From assembly GCA_043823435.1 (NCBI GenBank), contig JBDRAV010000002.1, positions 61,755-125,754 of the forward strand: a stretch of 64,000 nucleotides of DNA, written 5' to 3'. Positions 5,162 through 29,193 of this stretch are shown here, piece by piece. Under the pieces are notes generated by a model. It saw only the letters and a program-made list of their open reading frames with translations, was not told where the DNA came from and searched no databases. Made by a program: the position numbers and the translations under genes. The stretch is from Candidatus Omnitrophota bacterium (GTDB lineage Bacteria; Omnitrophota; Gorgyraeia; Gygaellales; Profunditerraquicolaceae). Numbering within the stretch: the stretch's first letter is position 1; each line of letters begins with the position of its first letter.

Positions 5162-6445
5162 GTGCGGGATAAAAGGAAAATCCTATCCCCATTCTGCGCG
5201 AATACCGCCTTCGTCAGGCCCGCTTTCTTCATCCCTGCGATGTTCCATATAGATATGCCCCTACCAAGATTATTAGCCGTTTTCCTCCTAGTCAATATAA
5301 TCAGTGTATATTACCTGTTTAACAGGTATTACAGGAAAAAGCGCTCTCTTGCGATAAACAGCCAGGGCCTGGAAGAGAAGATAAATATCCTGAATACCGA
5401 AAACGTCCGGGAAGAAAGAAACAATTCTGCATTGCAGGAAAAGATCAAGCGCTACAGCGGTCTTAAAGAGATCGTCGAAGTGATAGACCAGAAACTGGAC
5501 CTGGAATATATAGGGGAGAGCCTTACATCAATTGCTTTCTCCATGATTGGCGCAAGTAAAGGGACGTGTACGCTATATTTACTGGATAACCGGACTCAGC
5601 GCCTGAGCCTTTTTAAGACAAAAAAAGAGAATGAGGGGCTGATCATTAAGGCGAAAGATGGGGATATCTTTGACCTGTGGGTATTAAGGCATTTCAGCCC
5701 TTTGTTAATAGAAGATACCAAGAGGGACTTCCGTTTCGACCTGGAGAAGATAGGGGTTAAAGATATAAGGCCTATTTCTTCCTTGATCAGTTCGCCGCTG
5801 ATAAGTGAGCATAAGTTTTTGGGGTTGCTAAGGATCGATAATCCATCCCCCGGATTTTATTCCCAGGATGACCTCAGGTTTCTGGCAACCGTATGCGATC
5901 TTGGGGCGGTCGCTATTGAAAACGGGGAGCTCTTCCAACGGACCAGGGATCTGGCTATCCACGATGAATTGACCCGTCTTTATACCAAGGGGTATTTCAT
6001 TGAGCAATTGGGAATAAAATGCAACAGGGGCCTGCGCCAGAATGCGTTCTTTTCGCTGCTCATGTTTGATATCGACTATTTTAAAAATTACAACGATAAA
6101 TTCGGGCATACCAGCGGCGATTTAGTATTAAAGAGCTTGAGCCATACCATAACTGATTCCTTAAAGAAATTCGACCCTCTTGTAAGCCGTTTCGGAGGAG
6201 AGGAATTCTGTGTAATCCTGCCTTCCCAGGACAAGAATGCCGCTTACATTATCGCCGATGAGCTCAGGGCAAAAATAGAGAAAACAAAGATAATCTTACG
6301 TAACGAGGAGACACATATCAGGGTCTCTATAGGTGTAGCTTCTTTCCCGCGGGATGCTATGGATGCGGATGGGCTTATCTTGAGGTCTGACAAGGCGATG
6401 TATGAAGCAAAACAGAACGGGAGAAACCGGGTATGCTTAGCCTGA
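5162..6445 (+). CDS. Membrane-anchored GAF-GGDEF diguanylate cyclase (start uncertain: GTG at 5162, alternative ATG at 5237/5255)
   Basis: N-terminal TM helix, coiled-coil, GAF-like middle region, C-terminal GGDEF domain with GGEEF active-site motif (SRFGGEEFCVIL). Confidence 0.8.
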   Translation: MRDKRKILSPFCANTAFVRPAFFIPAMFHIDMPLPRLLAVFLLVNIISVYYLFNRYYRKKRSLAINSQGLEEKINILNTENVREERNNSALQEKIKRYSGLKEIVEVIDQKLDLEYIGESLTSIAFSMIGASKGTCTLYLLDNRTQRLSLFKTKKENEGLIIKAKDGDIFDLWVLRHFSPLLIEDTKRDFRFDLEKIGVKDIRPISSLISSPLISEHKFLGLLRIDNPSPGFYSQDDLRFLATVCDLGAVAIENGELFQRTRDLAIHDELTRLYTKGYFIEQLGIKCNRGLRQNAFFSLLMFDIDYFKNYNDKFGHTSGDLVLKSLSHTITDSLKKFDPLVSRFGGEEFCVILPSQDKNAAYIIADELRAKIEKTKIILRNEETHIRVSIGVASFPRDAMDADGLILRSDKAMYEAKQNGRNRVCLA

Positions 6446-7431
6446 TCATATTGGTTTTATTCAGCATGTTTCTGCATCTATCCTTGCGTAGTAGGTTAGA
6501 GGGGCGGATAGTCAGCGTGCCTGTTTTTAACCATGCTAAGGGAGAATACGACAGGCTGCTTGCGCATAACGATGAACTTAAGGCCGCTAATCAGGACCTG
6601 CAGGTGATTCTTGAAGGTATCATGGCGCTTTACGATATAACAAAACAGATCTGCAAGACCCTGGAGATAGATAAGGTCTTTGGAAACTTCAAGAGCGAGA
6701 TGAACAAATACATCAGGTCAGGCGATTGCCAATTTCTCAAGGGAGAGGTAGACATATCTTTTTATAAAGATAAAGCTTACGCGATAATCCCGCTAAACAT
6801 AAACGATAAGCTTGTGGGTTATCTGGTAGCTGACGGGATAAGTCGGGAGGACAAGGAAAGGTTCCATATACTATCCCAGCAATTTCTTCTTGGGGTTAAA
6901 AGGGCAATACTTTATCAGGATGTGCAGGGGTTGGCTATTATAGACAGCCTGACCAATATCTTTAACCGCCGCCATTACATGGAGAGGTTCAAGGAGGAGA
7001 TAGAACGCTCAAGGAAGTCCAAATATAAATTCTGCTGTCTGATGGTAGACATAGATTATTTCGAAAGTTTTAATGACCGCTACGGCCATATAGTAGGAGA
7101 TGCCATATTAAGGGAACTCTCTAAGGCCATACAGGAGAATATCAGGCAGATTGACCTGATTTGCAGGTATGGGGGAGAAGAGTTTTCCCTTATCTTGAGC
7201 GAGACGGATAAAGAGGCGGCCAAATTTGCAGCAGAACGTATACGTTTGGCCGTACAGGACAGGCGCATACGCGTATACGACGAAGAATTAAAGGTCACGG
7301 TGAGTATCGGCATTTCTGCTTATCCTGATGACGGCAAAGATATGGTAAAGCTTATCGATGCCGCGGATTCGGCTCTATACCGGGCAAAGCAGGAAGGCAG
7401 AAACAGGGCTTTTATCTATGGAGCCAAGTAA
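6433..7431 (+). CDS. GGDEF-domain diguanylate cyclase (second tandem copy)
   Basis: RYGGEEFSLIL GGDEF motif and a C-terminal KQEGRNR like the upstream paralog; overlaps upstream gene by 13 nt. Confidence 0.8.
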   Translation: MLSLIILVLFSMFLHLSLRSRLEGRIVSVPVFNHAKGEYDRLLAHNDELKAANQDLQVILEGIMALYDITKQICKTLEIDKVFGNFKSEMNKYIRSGDCQFLKGEVDISFYKDKAYAIIPLNINDKLVGYLVADGISREDKERFHILSQQFLLGVKRAILYQDVQGLAIIDSLTNIFNRRHYMERFKEEIERSRKSKYKFCCLMVDIDYFESFNDRYGHIVGDAILRELSKAIQENIRQIDLICRYGGEEFSLILSETDKEAAKFAAERIRLAVQDRRIRVYDEELKVTVSIGISAYPDDGKDMVKLIDAADSALYRAKQEGRNRAFIYGAK

Positions 7432-7434
7432 TAA

Positions 7435-7510
7435 ATAGGGACAGCGACTATTTTTCTTATTCAAAGATAGAAAATAGTCGCTGTCCCTATAATATTGTCC
7501 CTATAATATT
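7435..7510. promoter_or_regulatory. 20-bp perfect inverted repeat (ATAGGGACAGCGACTATTTT / AAAATAGTCGCTGTCCCTAT) with 16-nt loop, followed by tandem GTCCCTATAATATT x2 (two TATAAT boxes); terminator-like hairpin and/or operator upstream of glk
   Basis: Direct reading: 7435-7454 is the exact reverse complement of 7471-7490; the 14-mer GTCCCTATAATATT occurs at 7483-7496 and 7497-7510. Confidence 0.5.
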
Positions 7511-7549: not shown

Positions 7550-8476
7550 ATGGCGAAGAAATTTATCATAGCTATTGATTTAGGCGGGACGAATTTAAAG
7601 ATCGCACTCCTTGATACCCGCTGCCGGATTAAAGACAAGATCATTCTAAGTACGCATCGGTTCAGTAATAAAGAGATGCTTATTTCGGCAATCTCGGATT
7701 CCGTAGATAAGATTATAAAGGATAATAAGTTAAGTAAGCGGGATATCCTTGGTATCGGCGTGGGGTTAGCCGGATTGATAGATTATGAAAAAGGGGTAGT
7801 CCATTTCCTGCCTAATATCCCCGGATGGAAAGAAGTAGCGCTTAAGCGCATTCTTGAAAGAAGGCTTGGGTTGCCGGTATTACTGGATAACGATGTTAAC
7901 TTGATGTCGCTGGCAGAATATAAAATGGGAGCAGCGAAGGGTTCTAAGAATGCAATATGTATTACCCTGGGTACGGGCGTAGGGGCGGGTATTATCATTA
8001 ACGGTAGCCTTTACCGCGGGTCATCTAACGCAGCCGGGGAAATAGGGCATATGCCTATTAATGAAAAAGGGCCCCGTTGTAATTGCGGCGGCAGCGCATG
8101 CCTTGAGGATTATATCGGCAATAGCATAGTCTTAAAAGAGGCAAAGGGCGTCTTCAGGCGGGATATCTCTCTTGAGGAGTTAAGCTGTTTGGCGAAGAGG
8201 GGAGACCGCAGGGCCCGGGCAATATGGCTAAAAGTAGCCGGAAGATTATCGGTTGCGCTTGTGGGCGTAACAAACCTGCTTAATCCCGACCGTATAGTTA
8301 TCGGCGGAGGAGTGGCAGGCGCGGGGAAAATATTATTTAAAAATATAAGAAAGATTATCATGCAGCGGGCAATGAGCGTGCAGGCAGGGAAGGTGAAAGT
8401 CTATAAGGCGAAACTGGGAAATAATGCGGGTTTAATCGGGGCAGCCATACTCGTGAAGCATGAGGCTGGAAGATGA
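7550..8476 (+). CDS. glk: ROK-family glucokinase (no N-terminal HTH, so kinase rather than repressor)
   Basis: [13 protein letters not shown] ATPase N-terminus and the ROK zinc motif CNCGGSAC; length 308 aa. Confidence 0.85.
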
Positions 8477-9117
8477 AGATCTTCATCGATACGGCAAACG
8501 TCAAAGAGATAAGAGAAGCGGAGTCATTAGGGGTAATTGACGGCGTAACGACAAATCCGACTTTGATCGCAAGAGAAAAACGTAAAGCGCATGATCTGAT
8601 AAAAGAGATCTGTTCCCTGGTAGAAGGTCCGGTGAGCGCAGAAGTCATCGGGCTGCAATCAAAGGATATGGTTAAGGAGGCCGTGGAACTTTCAGAGATA
8701 GCAAAAAACGTGGTAATCAAGATACCTTTGATCAAGGAAGGGCTTAAGGCGGTAAGGGTCCTGCACGGTAAGGGGATAAAGACTAATGTTACCTTATGTT
8801 TTTCTGCGTCCCAGGCATTACTGGCAGCCAAGGCAGGAGCAGATTACGTTTCGCCGTTTATCGGCAGGCTTGATGATATAAGCCAAAAGGGGATGGATTT
8901 AATCGCCGATATAAAACAGATCTATGCGAATTATAATTTTAAGACCGAGATCATCGTGGCCTCGGTACGCAGCCCCATGCATGTTGTGGAAGCGGCGAAG
9001 ATCGGGGCTGATATAGCCACCGTTCCCTTCGCAGTAATCGAGCAGCTCATAAGACACCCTTTAACGGATACAGGAATCCAGCGGTTCCTGGAGGATTACA
9101 AGAAGATTCCCGGATAA
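8473..9117 (+). CDS. fsa: Transaldolase / fructose-6-phosphate aldolase (Fsa/TalC subfamily)
   Basis: [16 protein letters not shown]...GVTTNPTLI and catalytic-lysine region NVVIKIP; ~215 aa, typical of Fsa/short transaldolases. Confidence 0.9.
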
Positions 9118-15859: not shown

Positions 15860-16015
15860 AAAGCGGCGTATATTTTAATCTTATAAATTAATCAGAAAGA
15901 AGCTATCGGCTTGAATCCGAAAAGATAAATTCAGGGTGACCTGGGGGCACAAAGCCGCGCATCCTCGCTTGAGATGAAGGGCGGGCTACCCCCCCGAAGA
16001 TCCTAAGCGTTTAAA

Positions 16016-21540: not shown

Positions 21541-22797
21541 ATGGATCTGAAAGAGGAATTAACCAGGATAGCCAGAAATGCGCAGGAAGCATCTAGGTAC
21601 ATGCTGGGCGTATCTTCTGCCACTAAGGATAAGGCCTTAAAGGGTATGGCCATGGCTTTAATCCGTAATAAAAGCGTTATCCTGAAAGCAAATAAAAAGG
21701 ATATCCGTAAGGCTATTGCCGCGAAGTCGCCGGGCGCCTTTATAGAGAGGCTTACCCTTACCGGCAAAAGGATAGAGGAGATGTCGGATTCCCTGCTATC
21801 AATAGCCGGATTAGATGACCCTGTAGGAGAGACGATTAAATCCTGGCGCAGGCCCAATGGCCTGCGGATAAATAAGGTGCGCGTGCCTATCGGGGTAATC
21901 GCGATTATCTATGAGTCTCGCCCTAACGTTACCTCTGATTGCATCGGGTTATGCTTTAAATCTGGTAATAGCGTGATCCTTAGAGGCGGAAGTGAAGCAT
22001 TGAATTCCAATCTCGCCATATACAAGATACTTAAAAGGGAGATAAAGAAATACGCGATACCCGAAGGCGTAATTAATATGGTCTCTACATCTGACAGGCG
22101 TGCCGTGGACTTCTTGCTAAAACTGGATAATTACATCGATCTGGTGATGCCCCGCGGAGGGGAGAGCCTAATCAAGCGGGTGGTTAACCTCTCGCGTATA
22201 CCGGTGATAAAACACTACAAAGGCATATGTCATGTCTATGTTGACGATTGGGCTGACCTGAATATGGCAGAGAAGATCTGCTTTAATGCCAAGGTCCAGA
22301 GGCCCGGAGTCTGCAATGCTATGGAGAACATGCTTGTGCATAGGGACGTAGCAACAAGGTTTCTCCCGGGGATGGCCGGGAAATTCAAAGAAGCGGGTGT
22401 CGAGATCCGCGGTTGTGACATTACCCGTAAAATTGTAAAGGGGATAAAGAGGGTAACCGATAAGGATTATTTTACCGAGTATCTCGATCTTATCCTTTCC
22501 GTAAAAGTGGTTGATGGCCTGGATGAAGCCGTAAGGCACATAAATCATTATGGCTCGCGCCATTCGGACAGCATCGTGACCGACAACAAAGAGAATGCCG
22601 GGCGTTTCTTAAGGGATGTGGATTCTGCCTGTGTATATGTTAACGCTTCCACGCGTTTTACCGACGGCTATCAATTCGGGATGGGTGCGGAGATAGGGAT
22701 CTCTACCGATAAACTGCACGCGCGCGGGCCCATGGCTCTCGAAGAATTAACGACATACAAATATATGGTATTCGGTAACGGCCATATCCGTTCCTAA
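21541..22797 (+). CDS. proA: Gamma-glutamyl phosphate reductase
   Basis: Aldehyde dehydrogenase fold with the ProA-typical catalytic Cys region (CNAMENMLVH) and length 418 aa. Confidence 0.9.
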   Translation: MDLKEELTRIARNAQEASRYMLGVSSATKDKALKGMAMALIRNKSVILKANKKDIRKAIAAKSPGAFIERLTLTGKRIEEMSDSLLSIAGLDDPVGETIKSWRRPNGLRINKVRVPIGVIAIIYESRPNVTSDCIGLCFKSGNSVILRGGSEALNSNLAIYKILKREIKKYAIPEGVINMVSTSDRRAVDFLLKLDNYIDLVMPRGGESLIKRVVNLSRIPVIKHYKGICHVYVDDWADLNMAEKICFNAKVQRPGVCNAMENMLVHRDVATRFLPGMAGKFKEAGVEIRGCDITRKIVKGIKRVTDKDYFTEYLDLILSVKVVDGLDEAVRHINHYGSRHSDSIVTDNKENAGRFLRDVDSACVYVNASTRFTDGYQFGMGAEIGISTDKLHARGPMALEELTTYKYMVFGNGHIRS

Positions 22798-22804
22798 AAA
22801 CGAA

Positions 22805-22918
22805 GGACACTTCTCGTCCCAATCGGAGAAGTGTCCCCTAGATACAAATTATTATTAAGGAGGGACACTTCTCCGATTAGCTAAAGAAACGTTCCCCGAT
22901 TGGGTGAAGAAGTGTCCC
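22805..22918. repeat. Cluster of four alternating-orientation copies of a palindromic element (GGGACACTTCTCCGATTGG / CCAATCGGAGAAGTGTCCCC) forming two hairpins between proA and nadD
   Basis: 22805-22815 GGACACTTCTC is the reverse complement of 22826-22836; 22862-22878 is the reverse complement of 22821-22837; a degenerate fourth copy lies at 22894-22918. Confidence 0.6.
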
Positions 22919-22925
22919 TGAGGGT

Positions 22926-23492
22926 ATGAAGATAGGGGTATTGGGCGGTACTTTTAATCCTATACATATCGGCCATCTTATCCTTGCCGAGGAAGTAAGG
23001 GAGAAGCTGAGTCTTGATAAGGTTATACTTGTACCTGCGAACCTCCCGCCGCATAAGGATAATTCCGATATTGCTCCTGCGGGCGCAAGGTTGGACATGA
23101 TAAGGCTGGCTATAAAAGGGAACAGGCATTTTTCATCATCCGAACTGGAGATAAAAAGAGACGGGCGCTCCTATACCATAGATACCATTAATGAATTTAA
23201 GAAGATATACGCCAACGATGAGTTGTATTTTATTATCGGCTCGGACCTCCTCAAATACCTGGCTGAATGGAAGGACCTGCAGGATATCATTAAAATGGTA
23301 AGGTTTGTAGCTGCTACACGCCCTGGTTACCCTTTGGAAAAGATACCTTCCTATATAGCCACGGTTGCGATAAGGGCGGTTGATATCTCCGGTTTTGAGA
23401 TCAGGAAGGCGATAAAGAAAAATAAATCATTCCAGTACCTGGTACCGGAGAGGGTATTTAATTATATTAATAAAAAGGGGCTTTACCGATGA
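22926..23492 (+). CDS. nadD: Nicotinate-nucleotide adenylyltransferase
   Basis: MKIGVLGGTFNPIHIGH (the HxGH nucleotidyltransferase motif), ~190 aa. Confidence 0.9.
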   Translation: MKIGVLGGTFNPIHIGHLILAEEVREKLSLDKVILVPANLPPHKDNSDIAPAGARLDMIRLAIKGNRHFSSSELEIKRDGRSYTIDTINEFKKIYANDELYFIIGSDLLKYLAEWKDLQDIIKMVRFVAATRPGYPLEKIPSYIATVAIRAVDISGFEIRKAIKKNKSFQYLVPERVFNYINKKGLYR

Positions 23493-26372: not shown

Positions 26373-27914
26373 ATGTCAACAGATAAGAATACCATGGAGG
26401 AGCTTTATAATCAGAGCATAAAGATGCTGAAGGAGGCCCAGATTGTAAAGGGCAAGATCGTATCCATAAAATCAAAAGAGGTGTTGGTGGACGTGGGCTT
26501 TAAGTCCGAGGGTATCGTTCCTATCACCCAGTTCAGTAAAGAGGACTTGGGGGTCGGTAAAGAACTGGATTTCTTTGTTGATTGCATTGAAGACGATTCC
26601 GGGATGATAGGCCTCTCCCGCGATAAAGCCATACGCATACAAGGGTGGGATAATATCGTGAAGAACGCTAATGACGGTACCCTTGTTGAGGGTAAGCCGG
26701 TGAAGAAGGTGAAGGGAGGTTTCCTGATAGATGTTATGGGTATAGAAGGGTTCCTACCCACATCGCTTTCCTCCTTCAGGGGGCTGTCGGACAAGAGTAT
26801 CCTTTACAACAAGTTTAAATTCAAGATTATCAAAGTGAATAATTTAAGGCACAGCATAATATTATCCCACCGCGATGCCATGCAGAAATCCAGGGAGGAA
26901 GCGAAAGAAAAGTTATGGCAGGATTTAAAGGTAGGAGCTATTCATCCGGGTACGGTCAAGGCCATAACCGACTTCGGGGCATTTGTGGATTTAGGAGGCG
27001 CAGACGGGCTTCTCTATATCACCGATATGTCCTGGTCTAAGATCAGCCATCCTTCCGAGATAGTGGCGCTGGGGGATAAGATCGATGTGGTCATTCTGAA
27101 TATGGACAAGGAATCCGGAAAGGTTTCTCTCGGCTTAAAGCAGAGATTGCCCGACCCATGGCAGGATATCGAGACCAAGTACAGCGTAGCCTCAAAGGTA
27201 AAGGGTAAGGTGGTAAATATCCTGCCTTACGGCGTATTCGTGGAGCTGGAAAAGGGTATTGAAGGCCTGGTCCATGTATCCGAAATATCCTGGACAAAGA
27301 GGGTGAATAATCCGGGAGAGATGTTTGCCATAGGAGATATGCTGGAAGTTCAGGTGTTAAACATTGATAAGCAATCACGCAAGATATCTTTAAGTTTAAA
27401 ACAGCTGGAGCAAAACCCTTGGTTAGACGTTGAATCTAAATACCCGGTAGGCACAAAAATCCAGGGGAAGGTAAGGGGTTTTACCGCTTACGGGGTATTC
27501 GTGGAACTGGATAACAGCCTGGAAGGAATGATCCACGTTTCGGATATCTCTTGGACCAAAAGAGTAGCCCATCCGCAGGATATCTTTAAGAAAGGCCAGA
27601 AGATAGAAGTAGTGGTGCTTTCCGCGGACGCTGCAAACCGGCGCATTTCGCTCGGCTTAAAGCAATTGCATCCTAACCCATGGCCAGAGATAGCGGTCAA
27701 ATATCCGGTGGATACCGAGCTAGAAACGGAAGTAGTGAATGTGAACGATTTTGGGGTATTCGTAAAGATCGAAGAGGATCTGGAAGGCCTGGTCTATAGC
27801 AGCGAGATAGATAATGATGCTCTCGCGCAATTGAAACCGGGCGATAAGTTAAAAGCGAAAGTAATCAAGGTAGATGCGGAGCAGGCAAAGATAGGCCTTA
27901 CCTCCAAAATCTAG
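26373..27914 (+). CDS. rpsA: 30S ribosomal protein S1 (multiple S1 repeats)
   Basis: Six S1-domain repeats with the recurring G.V..I..FGAFV.L..G..GL.H.S motif; strong RBS AAGAAAGGGAGG. Confidence 0.9.
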   Translation: MSTDKNTMEELYNQSIKMLKEAQIVKGKIVSIKSKEVLVDVGFKSEGIVPITQFSKEDLGVGKELDFFVDCIEDDSGMIGLSRDKAIRIQGWDNIVKNANDGTLVEGKPVKKVKGGFLIDVMGIEGFLPTSLSSFRGLSDKSILYNKFKFKIIKVNNLRHSIILSHRDAMQKSREEAKEKLWQDLKVGAIHPGTVKAITDFGAFVDLGGADGLLYITDMSWSKISHPSEIVALGDKIDVVILNMDKESGKVSLGLKQRLPDPWQDIETKYSVASKVKGKVVNILPYGVFVELEKGIEGLVHVSEISWTKRVNNPGEMFAIGDMLEVQVLNIDKQSRKISLSLKQLEQNPWLDVESKYPVGTKIQGKVRGFTAYGVFVELDNSLEGMIHVSDISWTKRVAHPQDIFKKGQKIEVVVLSADAANRRISLGLKQLHPNPWPEIAVKYPVDTELETEVVNVNDFGVFVKIEEDLEGLVYSSEIDNDALAQLKPGDKLKAKVIKVDAEQAKIGLTSKI

Positions 27915-27992
27915 GGATACTTCTTAACCCAATCCCTGCCTGCCGGCAGGCAGGGAGGGACACTTCTTAATCCAATCGGGGAAGTGTCCCCC
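27914..27992. repeat. Second locus of the same palindromic element family plus a perfect 22-bp palindrome (CCCTGCCTGCCGGCAGGCAGGG) immediately upstream of tyrS
   Basis: 27957-27966 GGGACACTTC is the reverse complement of 27982-27991; CCAATCGGGGAAGTGTCCCC (27973-27992) matches 22819-22838 at 19 of 20 positions; the palindrome at 27934-27955 is a perfect 11+11. Confidence 0.6.
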
Positions 27993-28008
27993 TATGCGAG
28001 GTAGCAAG

Positions 28009-29193
28009 ATGGAGAAACCTGATATCGACAAGCAGTTAGAGATTATCAAGCGCGGAGCAGTGGATATAATTTCCGAGAAGGAATTAAAAACCAAGCTGCA
28101 GGAGAGTATAAAGTCAAAGAGGCCGCTCAATATAAAGGCCGGGTTTGACCCTACCACAGCGGATATCCACCTTGGCCATACTGTTCTTTTGAGGAAACTG
28201 CGGCAGTTCCAGGACCTTGGCCACCGTGTCATCTTTTTAATCGGAGATTTTACTGCCCGTATCGGAGACCCGAGCGGACGGCAGGAGGCAAGAAAGCCCT
28301 TGACTAAAGAAGAGGCCATCGGGAACGCGGCTACTTATAAAAACCAGGTATCCAAAATACTCGATACGGATAATATACGCGTAGTATTTAACAGCGAATG
28401 GTTTGACAGTATGTCGGTATTGGAGATATTGAAACTGACTACGCATGCCACGGTCTCTCAAATGTTGGCGAGAAGCGATTTTAAAAAGAGATTATCCAAG
28501 GGCGATGAGGTCTCTCTTTTAGAGTTTATGTATCCGCTGCTGCAGGGTTATGATTCGGTAAAGTTAGAGGCAGATATCGAATTGGGCGGGACAGACCAGA
28601 TATTCAATCTTCTCGTGGGCAGGGATATGCAGAAGGACTTCGGACAACAGCAGCAGGCAGTCATAACCATGCCGCTTCTGGAAGGAACGGACGGCGTGCA
28701 AAAAATGAGCAAGTCTTACGGAAATTACATTGCCATTAACGACAGCCCGAAGGATATGTTCGGGAAGATCATGTCGATTTCCGATGAGATGATGTTGAAA
28801 TATTATACACTGCTTACTGATGAGGACTTGGAGGCCGTGAAGAAAATTCATCCCAAAGAAGCAAAGTCTAACCTCGCGGAGAATATCACCAGACAATACC
28901 ACGGCAGGGAAGCAGCGGAAAAAGCAAGACGGGAGTTTGAGGATGTTTTTAGCAAAGGAGAATTACCTGAAGAGCTGCCTGTTTATAAGTTGAAGAAAGA
29001 GGGTAGTTCTATAATCGATATCCTGCTGGATAGCGGCCTTACTTTATCCAGAAATGAGGCACGCCGCCTGATACAGCAGGGTGGCGTATCTTTAGACGGT
29101 AAACGCCTGGACAAAGAGGATACGTTCATCGATAAAGAAGGAACGTTGAAGGCGGGGAAGAGGCGCTTCCTGAGACTTATTAAAGAAAAATAG
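28009..29193 (+). CDS. tyrS: Tyrosyl-tRNA synthetase (start at the ATG with a GAGGT RBS; the ORF track's upstream ATG at 27994 lacks an RBS and lies in the hairpin)
   Basis: HIGH-class motif HLGH, KMSKS, C-terminal S4-like domain. Confidence 0.9.
   Translation: MEKPDIDKQLEIIKRGAVDIISEKELKTKLQESIKSKRPLNIKAGFDPTTADIHLGHTVLLRKLRQFQDLGHRVIFLIGDFTARIGDPSGRQEARKPLTKEEAIGNAATYKNQVSKILDTDNIRVVFNSEWFDSMSVLEILKLTTHATVSQMLARSDFKKRLSKGDEVSLLEFMYPLLQGYDSVKLEADIELGGTDQIFNLLVGRDMQKDFGQQQQAVITMPLLEGTDGVQKMSKSYGNYIAINDSPKDMFGKIMSISDEMMLKYYTLLTDEDLEAVKKIHPKEAKSNLAENITRQYHGREAAEKARREFEDVFSKGELPEELPVYKLKKEGSSIIDILLDSGLTLSRNEARRLIQQGGVSLDGKRLDKEDTFIDKEGTLKAGKRRFLRLIKEK

Follow-up and report, generated by a model that had tools for sequence, protein, structure and literature searches.

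Palindromic repeats of probable REP/REPIN type between genes of Candidatus Omnitrophota

Omnitrophota are an uncultured phylum of the Planctomycetes-Verrucomicrobia-Chlamydiae (PVC) group with small, dense genomes. In 64,000 nucleotides of one such genome, Candidatus Omnitrophota bacterium (assembly GCA_043823435.1, contig JBDRAV010000002.1, positions 61,755 to 125,754; hereafter the window), a family of short palindromic repeats fills the gap between proA (21541-22797) and nadD (22926-23492) and that between rpsA (26373-27914) and tyrS (27994-29193). The four genes are verified by NCBIfam models, which also back rpe, a glmM-like gene and a plsC-like gene in the window. The proA-nadD gap (gap 1) is 128 nt long and the rpsA-tyrS gap (gap 2) 79 nt, and the repeat copies, gap sizes and gene names all agree with a preliminary description of this DNA made from its sequence. 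Allowing up to three mismatches, the 20-mer CCAATCGGRGAAGTGTCCCC has 3 matches in the 64-kb window versus 0.01 expected, and the 11-mer GGGACACTTCT, with up to one mismatch, has 7 versus 0.58 expected, all of them confined to 22804-22918 (proA-nadD) and 27914-27990 (rpsA-tyrS). Likewise, the six occurrences of the 8-mer GACACTTC are restricted to gaps 1 and 2, and an nhmmer search with a profile of 103 family members found no further copies in the window.

Two clusters of one palindromic element

The 20-mer repeat singled out by the preliminary description is real, and the actual unit proves richer, being composed of an arm, four nucleotides (N4) and a loop, with a cap placed after the units. 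One to three direct units of ~23 nt, AGGGACGKTTCT-N4-CCAATCGG, precede an inverted cap, AGAAGTGTCCCC; in pattern form the unit reads (A)GGGAC-NN-TTCT, ~4 nt, CCAATCGG, and the cap pairs with its head. The building block is a ~35-nt stem-loop with (A)GGGAC-NN-TTCT as its 5' arm, CCAATCGG as a conserved loop and AGAAGTGTCCCC as its 3' arm or cap, and so it is a short imperfect palindrome with a stem of 11 bp and a loop of 10-14 nt. A spacer and a mirror half often follow the cap, giving a doublet of 74-94 nt that resembles a REPIN, the hairpin-forming pair of inverted repetitive extragenic palindromic (REP) sequences.

The composite in gap 1 (22803-22919, + strand) is such a REPIN-like doublet, for which a nested long hairpin is predicted. 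Its left half (22803-22838, +) consists of aAGGACACTTCT-CGTC-CCAATCGG and the cap AGAAGTGTCCCC at 22827-22838 (nhmmer E 1.9e-11), and it can form a local hairpin of its own, GGACACTTCTC/GAGAAGTGTCC. The apical loop is an AT-rich spacer of 23 nt (22839-22861, +) that aligns with the spacers of the loci designated L228, L117, L116 and L137 among those we compared, and its position is the one held by the transposase gene in loci that carry a REP-associated tyrosine transposase (RAYT). The right half (22862-22919, +) mirrors the left, with a reversed cap, GGGACACTTCT, followed by two reverse-complement units, CCGATTAG-CTAA-AGAAACGTTCCC and then CGATTGG-GTGA-AGAAGTGTCCCT, which nhmmer recovers on the minus strand at E 3.8e-12 and 1.1e-06. 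A copy in L061, L128 and L183 matches this half at 91% identity, in L061 lying between two other genes, and the whole gap-1 composite, spacer included, aligns over its full length with doublets at unrelated loci. L061 is the GTDB record CAZJFL010000001.1, from a metagenome-assembled genome labelled 'uncultured Planctomycetales', and its locus is shared with contigs L128 and L183; its element is of the Omnitrophota type, and the label or purity of the bin may be questionable.

In gap 2, unit 1 (27912-27934, +) reads tAGGGATACTTCT-TAAC-CCAATC; it scores an nhmmer E of 0.11 and has an orthologous unit in L193 and L240. Unit 2 with its cap (27955-27992, +), GAGGGACACTTCT-TAAT-CCAATCGG-GGAAGTGTCCCCC, is the basic REP hairpin (nhmmer E 8.9e-12). 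Inserted at the junction of the two units is the GC-rich perfect palindrome already noted in the preliminary description, a real feature of 24 nt without strand (27933-27956) made up of TCCCTGCCTGCC followed by GGCAGGCAGGGA and missing from the orthologs of this element in L193 and L240. The palindrome CCTGCCTGCCGGCAGGCAGG recurs in the metagenome contigs L141 (858-881) and L212 (4912-4931), where an identical 20-mer is present, in one of the two with 1 mismatch, and its sequence suggests that another small palindromic repeat may nest into the first. At its 5' end (tAGGGA) the gap-2 element overlaps the rpsA stop codon TAG (27912-27914), and it ends 5 nt before the Shine-Dalgarno (SD) sequence GAGGT (27998-28002). 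A conserved ATG at 28009 with GAGGT before it, in the context GCGAGGTAAnAAGATG common to the window, L193 and L240, is probably the true tyrS start, in which case 16 nt separate the last arm from the start codon. The arm does lie next to the SD, as had been described, with its distance to the tyrS start amended to this value.

Folding of the two gaps, proposed earlier as a check, yields stable predicted hairpins in both. The predicted RNA fold of gap 1 (-52.3 kcal/mol, z -6.0) joins an outer stem, 22805-22816/22906-22917, to an inner stem, 22818-22838/22861-22880, and leaves the SD GAGGG (22920-22924) and the ATG (22926) unpaired; as DNA, the gap is predicted to fold at -28 kcal/mol (z -6.5). 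The prediction being of one long nested hairpin, the two consecutive hairpins that had been proposed for the proA-nadD gap are hairpins indeed, though not necessarily two. For gap 2 the prediction is of two adjacent hairpins (-46.3 kcal/mol, z -3.7), also with SD and AUG unpaired. Across the 103 copies of the family, 88% of stem cells are paired, the 3' arm having been fixed by the search pattern. The usual 5' arm, GGGACGTTTCT or GGGACGGTTCT, is an imperfect complement of the cap, such that stem position 6 forms a G·U pair in 91 of the 103 copies, and 53 have U·G at position 7, and the local hairpin should therefore form better on the strand as written. In doublets, by comparison, pairing is perfect between the outer arms and likewise between the caps. 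Covariation in our alignment of the copies (A2) carries essentially no information, since the search pattern had set the 3' arm and L180 is the sole row that varies.

Dispersal of the family and the transposase between its halves

A metagenome scan with the 19-mer CYAATCGGRGAAGTGTCCC answered the earlier call for a search for further copies: the sequence is carried by at least 120 contigs, which clustering by flank homology resolves into ~83 independent sites, mostly between open reading frames (ORFs). These counts, and those derived from them (103 copies and 31 doublets), hold among the matches listed. The family consensus is AGGGACGTTTCTTnAGCCAATCGGAGAAGTGTCCCC. Doublets occur at ~25 of the 83 sites, for a ratio of singlets to doublets of 58:25, and their sizes are discrete (74-77, 86 and 94 nt). 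A second scan, of GTDB genomes with a hairpin pattern, was noisy and unfit for counting copies: many of its matches were unrelated hairpins closed by the identical 10-bp stem, and some of them may be due to chance, hairpins being so common; the useful loci among the matches listed were L061, L082 (Omnitrophota), L088 (Omnitrophica) and L023. Viral contigs gave one match in 2.9 million, and as judged from these sequences the family is not phage-borne.

The inverted halves of the element enclose a gene in at least 12 contigs. In L223 they lie 550 nt apart and flank a 156-aa ORF that matches Pfam Y1_Tnp at 63 bits (cutoff 23) and the NCBIfam model 'REP-associated tyrosine transposase' (REP_Tyr_transpos) at 74.9 bits (cutoff 80), compared with 16.5 bits for NCBIfam IS200 (cutoff 55). 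The same distinction holds across the RAYTs of the family, which score 74-81 bits on NF047646 versus 16-23 bits for IS200, and the enclosed protein is throughout a Y1/HUH transposase of ~160 aa. Of the 120 metagenome loci listed, 12 (L223, L182, L203, L176, L201, L198, L170, L175, L125, L233, L181 and L219) have, by tblastn, a RAYT homolog directly beside an element, as do L082, L023 and L032; ~0.3 such loci would be expected in the 689 kb concerned for a single-copy gene, as against the 12 found. Inverted repeats flank the gene in L223, L203, L201, L082, L198, L170, L125, L233 and others. The order is constant: units and cap come first, the gene follows after ~60 nt in the same orientation, and the reversed cap and reverse units lie 30-70 nt beyond it. 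It follows that a doublet corresponds to the flanks of the gene with a short spacer in place of the gene itself. The family thus presents a clean series from a gene between two halves, through the doublet, to the singlet. A PDB search with the single L223 sequence gave no hit, and a profile of 14 RAYT proteins found E. coli TnpA_REP (4ER8) as its best PDB hit (E 1.7e-6), with IS200/ISDra2 at ~0.1. L125 also holds a second RAYT-like ORF (8459-8905, +) that is 38-39% identical to the L223 RAYT and in which EEYYQL replaces the HUH motif, so that this copy is probably inactive, to judge from its sequence.

The same architecture has to be weighed against descent from a DDE-type insertion sequence, that is, a miniature inverted-repeat transposable element (MITE) with termini AGGGAC...GTCCCT moved by a classical transposase. 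The doublets, with their inverted termini and discrete sizes, would suit such an element, and the direct subterminal units resemble multiple transposase-binding sites. However, none of the 31 doublets has a target-site duplication of 3 nt or more, and the only gene repeatedly enclosed by the halves is the Y1/HUH RAYT, no DDE transposase having been seen between them. We rejected the MITE reading on the missing duplications and consider it highly improbable overall. Of the preliminary proposal of a 'REP/BIME- or MITE-like' family (BIME, bacterial interspersed mosaic element), the REP-like part is borne out, in REPIN-like form, by the ~83 sites, the inverted doublets and the RAYT, and the MITE-like part falls away with the lack of target-site duplications.

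The genome of the window has a RAYT as well. NadD of the window is identical to MFH1888540.1, from a 133,574-bp contig of Candidatus Omnitrophota bacterium, and a RAYT homolog, P0204 (MFH1888481.1), is encoded on a 133,574-bp contig of the same submission, 59 protein accessions before NadD, which places it outside the window on the same contig. P0204 scores 80.1 bits on NF047646 (cutoff 80) and retains the HUH motif (PNHIHLI) and the tyrosine-bearing stretch NYIEYNPVR, both conserved. Its AlphaFold (AF2) model (predicted local distance difference test score, pLDDT, 88.8) has chain 4ER8_A as its best fold match, over the full length, at E 3.9e-9 and a template modeling (TM) score of 0.72, compared with ~0.55 for the IS608/ISDra2 transposases. 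It is 83% identical to the RAYT of L082, whose flanking hairpins have perfect ACAC/ACAC arms, as do the window copies.

Taken together, these observations make it very probable, in our judgment, that both clusters are non-autonomous palindromic repeats of the REP/REPIN type belonging to Candidatus Omnitrophota, and that a small RAYT of the domesticated type, encoded on the same contig, has most likely spread them, as genome parasites or passengers of a familiar sort. At the level of sequence, the family has in common with REP/REPIN-RAYT systems a unit that is palindromic, copies that are dispersed and extragenic, doublets of inverted halves, and a RAYT both between the repeats and in the same genome; unusual details are the stacking of tandem arm-plus-loop units before a single cap and the conservation of a loop of 8 nt. 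By analogy with E. coli TnpA_REP and its REPs (4ER8) and with the REPIN-RAYT system of Pseudomonas, we propose that hairpins of single-stranded DNA would be recognized, cut and joined in trans, most likely by the RAYT of the genome, a Y1/HUH enzyme of the TnpA_REP type whose own gene would sit between two element halves. Extra units of 5' arm plus loop can stack in tandem before the cap, and copies would survive where they are harmless, in the few bases that a compact genome leaves between a stop codon and the next SD. REP/REPIN-RAYT elements are thereby documented in Omnitrophota, a phylum from which they are not known to have been reported; searches of the searchable literature with the sequence strings returned unrelated primers and no relevant paper.

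Orthologous junctions, orientation and possible effects on RNA

We compared the syntenic loci of relatives whose NadD is 77-81% identical to that of the window and whose coding DNA is ~70-73% identical. The rpsA-tyrS junction holds two units, a cap and the extra GC palindrome in the window, two units and a cap in L193 and L240, one unit with compensated stems (GGGACACCCT/AGGGTGTCCC) in L180, and a full doublet of the L180 stem variant in L236, and it is empty (12 nt) in L238. At proA-nadD the window has its doublet of the studied family, whereas L236 and L240 have a different family, GGGACTGTCCCCrAAGGGGACTGTCCC, and L238 has AT-rich inverted repeats. The 19-mer itself is identical across genomes whose coding DNA is ~70-73% identical, and arm and loop motifs are unusually well kept for genomes at ~70% nucleotide identity. 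On the sequence evidence, the pattern of the junctions and the lack of target-site duplications are those of a mobile or turnover-prone REP population and not of a gene-specific regulatory site.

The preliminary description had raised the possibility of a regulator-binding site shared by nadD and tyrS, and a gene-specific operator of this kind, or else an intrinsic terminator or promoter cassette, might be suspected in a palindrome so close to start codons. The operator does not survive the comparison, however: the element occurs at ~83 sites beside many unrelated neighbors, the rpsA-tyrS junction of L238 lacks it, and unrelated repeat families take its place at proA-nadD in L236, L238 and L240. 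Terminator-like (T-tract) or sigma-70-like promoter sites were likewise not found on the + strand of gaps 1 and 2, and an intrinsic terminator or promoter was rejected because the site counts of both gaps equal those of shuffled sequence. Nor do the gaps match an Rfam family: at the gathering threshold the whole window gave one hit, a cyclic di-GMP-I (c-di-GMP-I) riboswitch outside the gaps, and an E-value scan of gap 1 gave generic microRNA (miRNA)-hairpin hits of at most 27 bits versus thresholds of 70-100. We therefore regard an operator or a terminator/promoter cassette as the least probable of the readings considered, bordering on negligible, and both hairpin clusters can be accounted for without gene-specific regulation.

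Elements of the family usually occupy all the space between the stop codon of one gene and the SD of the next. The upstream stop is TAG in 13 of 24 co-directional gaps, and in ~9 of these 13 this TAG belongs to the 5' end of the element itself. In L207, L131, L183 and others, the upstream ORF, as crudely called, reads into the first unit and stops at a TAG or TGA within it; judging from the sequences, some elements may extend into the 3' end of the gene before them and provide its stop codon. The element in L232 lies directly 3' of a tRNA gene.

Several findings weigh against the assignment to REPs spread by a RAYT. The unbiased density of sites in related contigs is modest, at ~0.012-0.025 per kb, and the genome of the window shows 2 loci within 64 kb. 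No RAYT is encoded inside the 64-kb window; P0204 is known from its protein record, and the flanking of RAYTs by repeats was read at the loci of relatives. The unpaired end tag GTAG (or CGTC) described by Di Nocera et al. 2013, of which GTAG marks the classical REPs of E. coli and Pseudomonas, is absent, the 5' consensus being nnTAGGGAC; GTAGGGAC appears in just a handful of the 103 copies, and CGTC is found solely inside the reverse-complement arm AGAAACGTCCC, never as an unpaired tag. The rpsA-tyrS element, moreover, is kept in five of six genomes with flanks that are ~70% identical, and half-elements (singlets) in co-directional gaps are oriented 24 sense to 4 antisense (p 1.8e-4), a bias that differs from the 6 sense and 7 antisense of doublets (Fisher p 0.019). 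Orientation was tallied against transcription on short contigs, a count in which replication strand is not separated. The singlet bias and the persistence at rpsA-tyrS suggest that some copies could be kept for a function in the host instead of being passengers only.

These last two findings also invite one to see in the family a domesticated RNA element, in which sense-oriented half-elements are selected as intercistronic hairpins of the mRNA that act as 'operon punctuation', setting the stability or translation of cistrons or binding an RNA-binding protein through the CCAATCGG loop, with the RAYT as a historical source only. In addition to the contrast between singlets and doublets and the occupancy of rpsA-tyrS in diverged genomes, where the stems of L180 and L236 are compensated and the loop is conserved, it would explain why G·U wobbles are confined to the sense strand, and why the upstream stop codon is often part of, or next to, the 5' end of the element, whose 3' end falls just before the SD. 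Against it stand the empty site of L238 and the varying architecture among orthologs, as well as the unrelated functions of the neighboring genes. The compensated stems, furthermore, run through a whole subfamily (all L236 arms), as co-evolution of REPs with their RAYT predicts and selection at a single site does not, and strand-specific insertion into single-stranded DNA could contribute to the orientation bias and, combined with a bias in gene strand, could produce part of it. We hold this explanation to be unlikely, albeit the most serious competitor of the RAYT-spread REPs.

A related and slightly less likely possibility, which we offer as speculation, is that sense half-elements are more than tolerated debris and have been co-opted lineage-wide as intercistronic mRNA hairpins, each beginning at, or even providing, the upstream stop codon and ending shortly before the next SD, with the CCAATCGG loop and G·U stem as the recognition site of an RNA-binding or processing factor and the RAYT retained to seed and homogenize the copies. 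The sense bias of singlets and the G·U pattern fit selection on the transcript, at least as far as sequence comparison goes, and Di Nocera et al. (PMC3733652) propose transcript-level selection for REPs in general. As REPs spread by a RAYT, too, the elements would be co-transcribed within operons, and sense copies would fold in the mRNA into hairpins of high stability, with the SD left accessible. Such hairpins would block 3'-to-5' exonucleases and thereby stabilize the upstream cistron (here proA and rpsA), as is known for REPs, and because the hairpin starts 0-7 nt after the stop codon, it may also delay termination or disrupt translational coupling. REPs no more than 15 nt from a stop codon reportedly lower the expression of the upstream gene in E. 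coli (Liang, Rudd & Deutscher 2015). That the elements influence the stability or translation of mRNA is plausible, given the sense bias, the G·U pairs and the SD predicted to be unpaired. The sense bias of singlets is relevant to the question whether REPs are maintained for functions at the RNA level, and it is, along with the conservation of the motifs across genera, the point most worth pursuing. On a practical note, the family should be masked in annotation, where it gives rise to ORF ends that are spurious and to false hits of the hairpin or miRNA-like kind.

Related systems and other repeats

One obvious point of reference is the REP/BIME and TnpA_REP system of E. coli, reportedly the subject of Ton-Hoang 2012. 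As in that system (Messing 2012, PMC3479197), the repeats are short imperfect palindromes at intergenic or intercistronic positions that form mosaic clusters of alternating orientation and have stems with G·T/G·U mismatches, and the RAYT gene lies between inverted repeats and encodes a protein closest to 4ER8 by both profile and fold. Unlike E. coli REPs, the Omnitrophota family begins with TAGGGAC and lacks the GTAG tag, its loop is the conserved 8-mer CCAATCGG, and its tandem arm-plus-loop units share a single 3' arm; the density also looks lower, at ~1 site per 30-85 kb, and the host belongs to another phylum. The REPIN-RAYT system of Pseudomonas (Bertels & Rainey 2011, PMC3116915; Bertels 2017, PMC5581495) has in common with the Omnitrophota family the doublet of two inverted REPs and a spacer that makes one long hairpin, the coexistence of singlets, the equivalence of doublets to RAYT flanks minus the gene, the persistence of copies at orthologous sites of diverged genomes, and arm variants that appear to co-vary with the RAYT clade. 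It differs in that the singlets of Omnitrophota outnumber doublets and are strongly sense-biased, and in that their 19-mer stays identical between genomes so diverged in coding DNA.

The TIRtrons of Di Nocera et al. 2013 (PMC3733652), with their TIRYT transposases, invite a further comparison. They are described there as RAYT-like genes whose flanking repeats share GGGGWSAS; as in Omnitrophota, non-GTAG inverted repeats flank the gene and also form moderately abundant dimers or clusters. The gene-proximal arms of our family, GGGGACAC(TTCT) on the 3' side and its complement on the 5' side, fit GGGGWSAS when GGGGACAC is set against the published consensus, with which alone it was compared. The survey did not include Omnitrophota. 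The GGGACACTTC stem, for its part, recurs in multi-copy hairpin families of other phyla, a further likeness to TIRtrons. Specifically, the 10-bp stem GGGACACTTC/GAAGTGTCCC closes hairpin families with differing loops in several distant phyla (loci among L001-L115), including Desulfuromonas BM302 (L018, L033, L037, L049, L066), Magasanikiibacteria (L036, L045, L067, L073, L078), Bacillota Bin_20 (L015, L031, L047, L051, L091) and many Syntrophaceae and Nitrospirae loci. In L023, from Deltaproteobacteria SM23_61, a RAYT homolog of 44% identity lies beside a hairpin with this stem. The sequences suggest that one clade of RAYTs has a hairpin foot (GGGGWSAS) that is conserved, although part of the resemblance may be chance, and a single RAYT clade may extend across Omnitrophota, Desulfobacterota, Nitrospirota and bacteria of the Candidate Phyla Radiation (CPR), recognizing the same GGGGACAC foot.

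Correia elements of Neisseria are co-transcribed inverted repeats whose RNA hairpins can alter mRNA processing; they show TA duplications and carry promoters and integration host factor (IHF) sites. The Omnitrophota elements resemble them, and MITEs, as small inverted-repeat elements beside genes that would be co-transcribed and can form RNA hairpins, and differ from them in having no target-site duplication, no promoter consensus and a Y1 transposase as partner.

Other repeats were met in the course of the comparison. The family seen at proA-nadD of L236 (5940-5966) and L240 (5916-5992) is also present in L130 (12409-12435), L217 (11441-11467) and L114 (1107-1134), and has GGGAC/GTCCC ends in common with the family studied here. 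The AT-rich repeats in the proA-nadD gap of L238 (5893-6001) are inverted TTGAGTT repeats, and L240 carries three tandem ~75-nt repeats upstream of rplU (1667-2150). In the window itself, a perfect 20-bp inverted repeat with a 16-nt loop, ATAGGGACAGCGACTATTTT/AAAATAGTCGCTGTCCCTAT (7435-7510), directly follows the stop codon of the ORF at 6433-7431, and a partial duplicate of its end (GTCCCTATAATAT) comes after it. Its TAGGGAC...GTCCCTA termini are those of the REP family; it is otherwise different, and has only weak relatives in the loci compared. The riboswitch detected in the window, finally, is a c-di-GMP-I aptamer (RF01051) at 15914-15993 on the + strand, with a score of 38 bits where the gathering score is 35.

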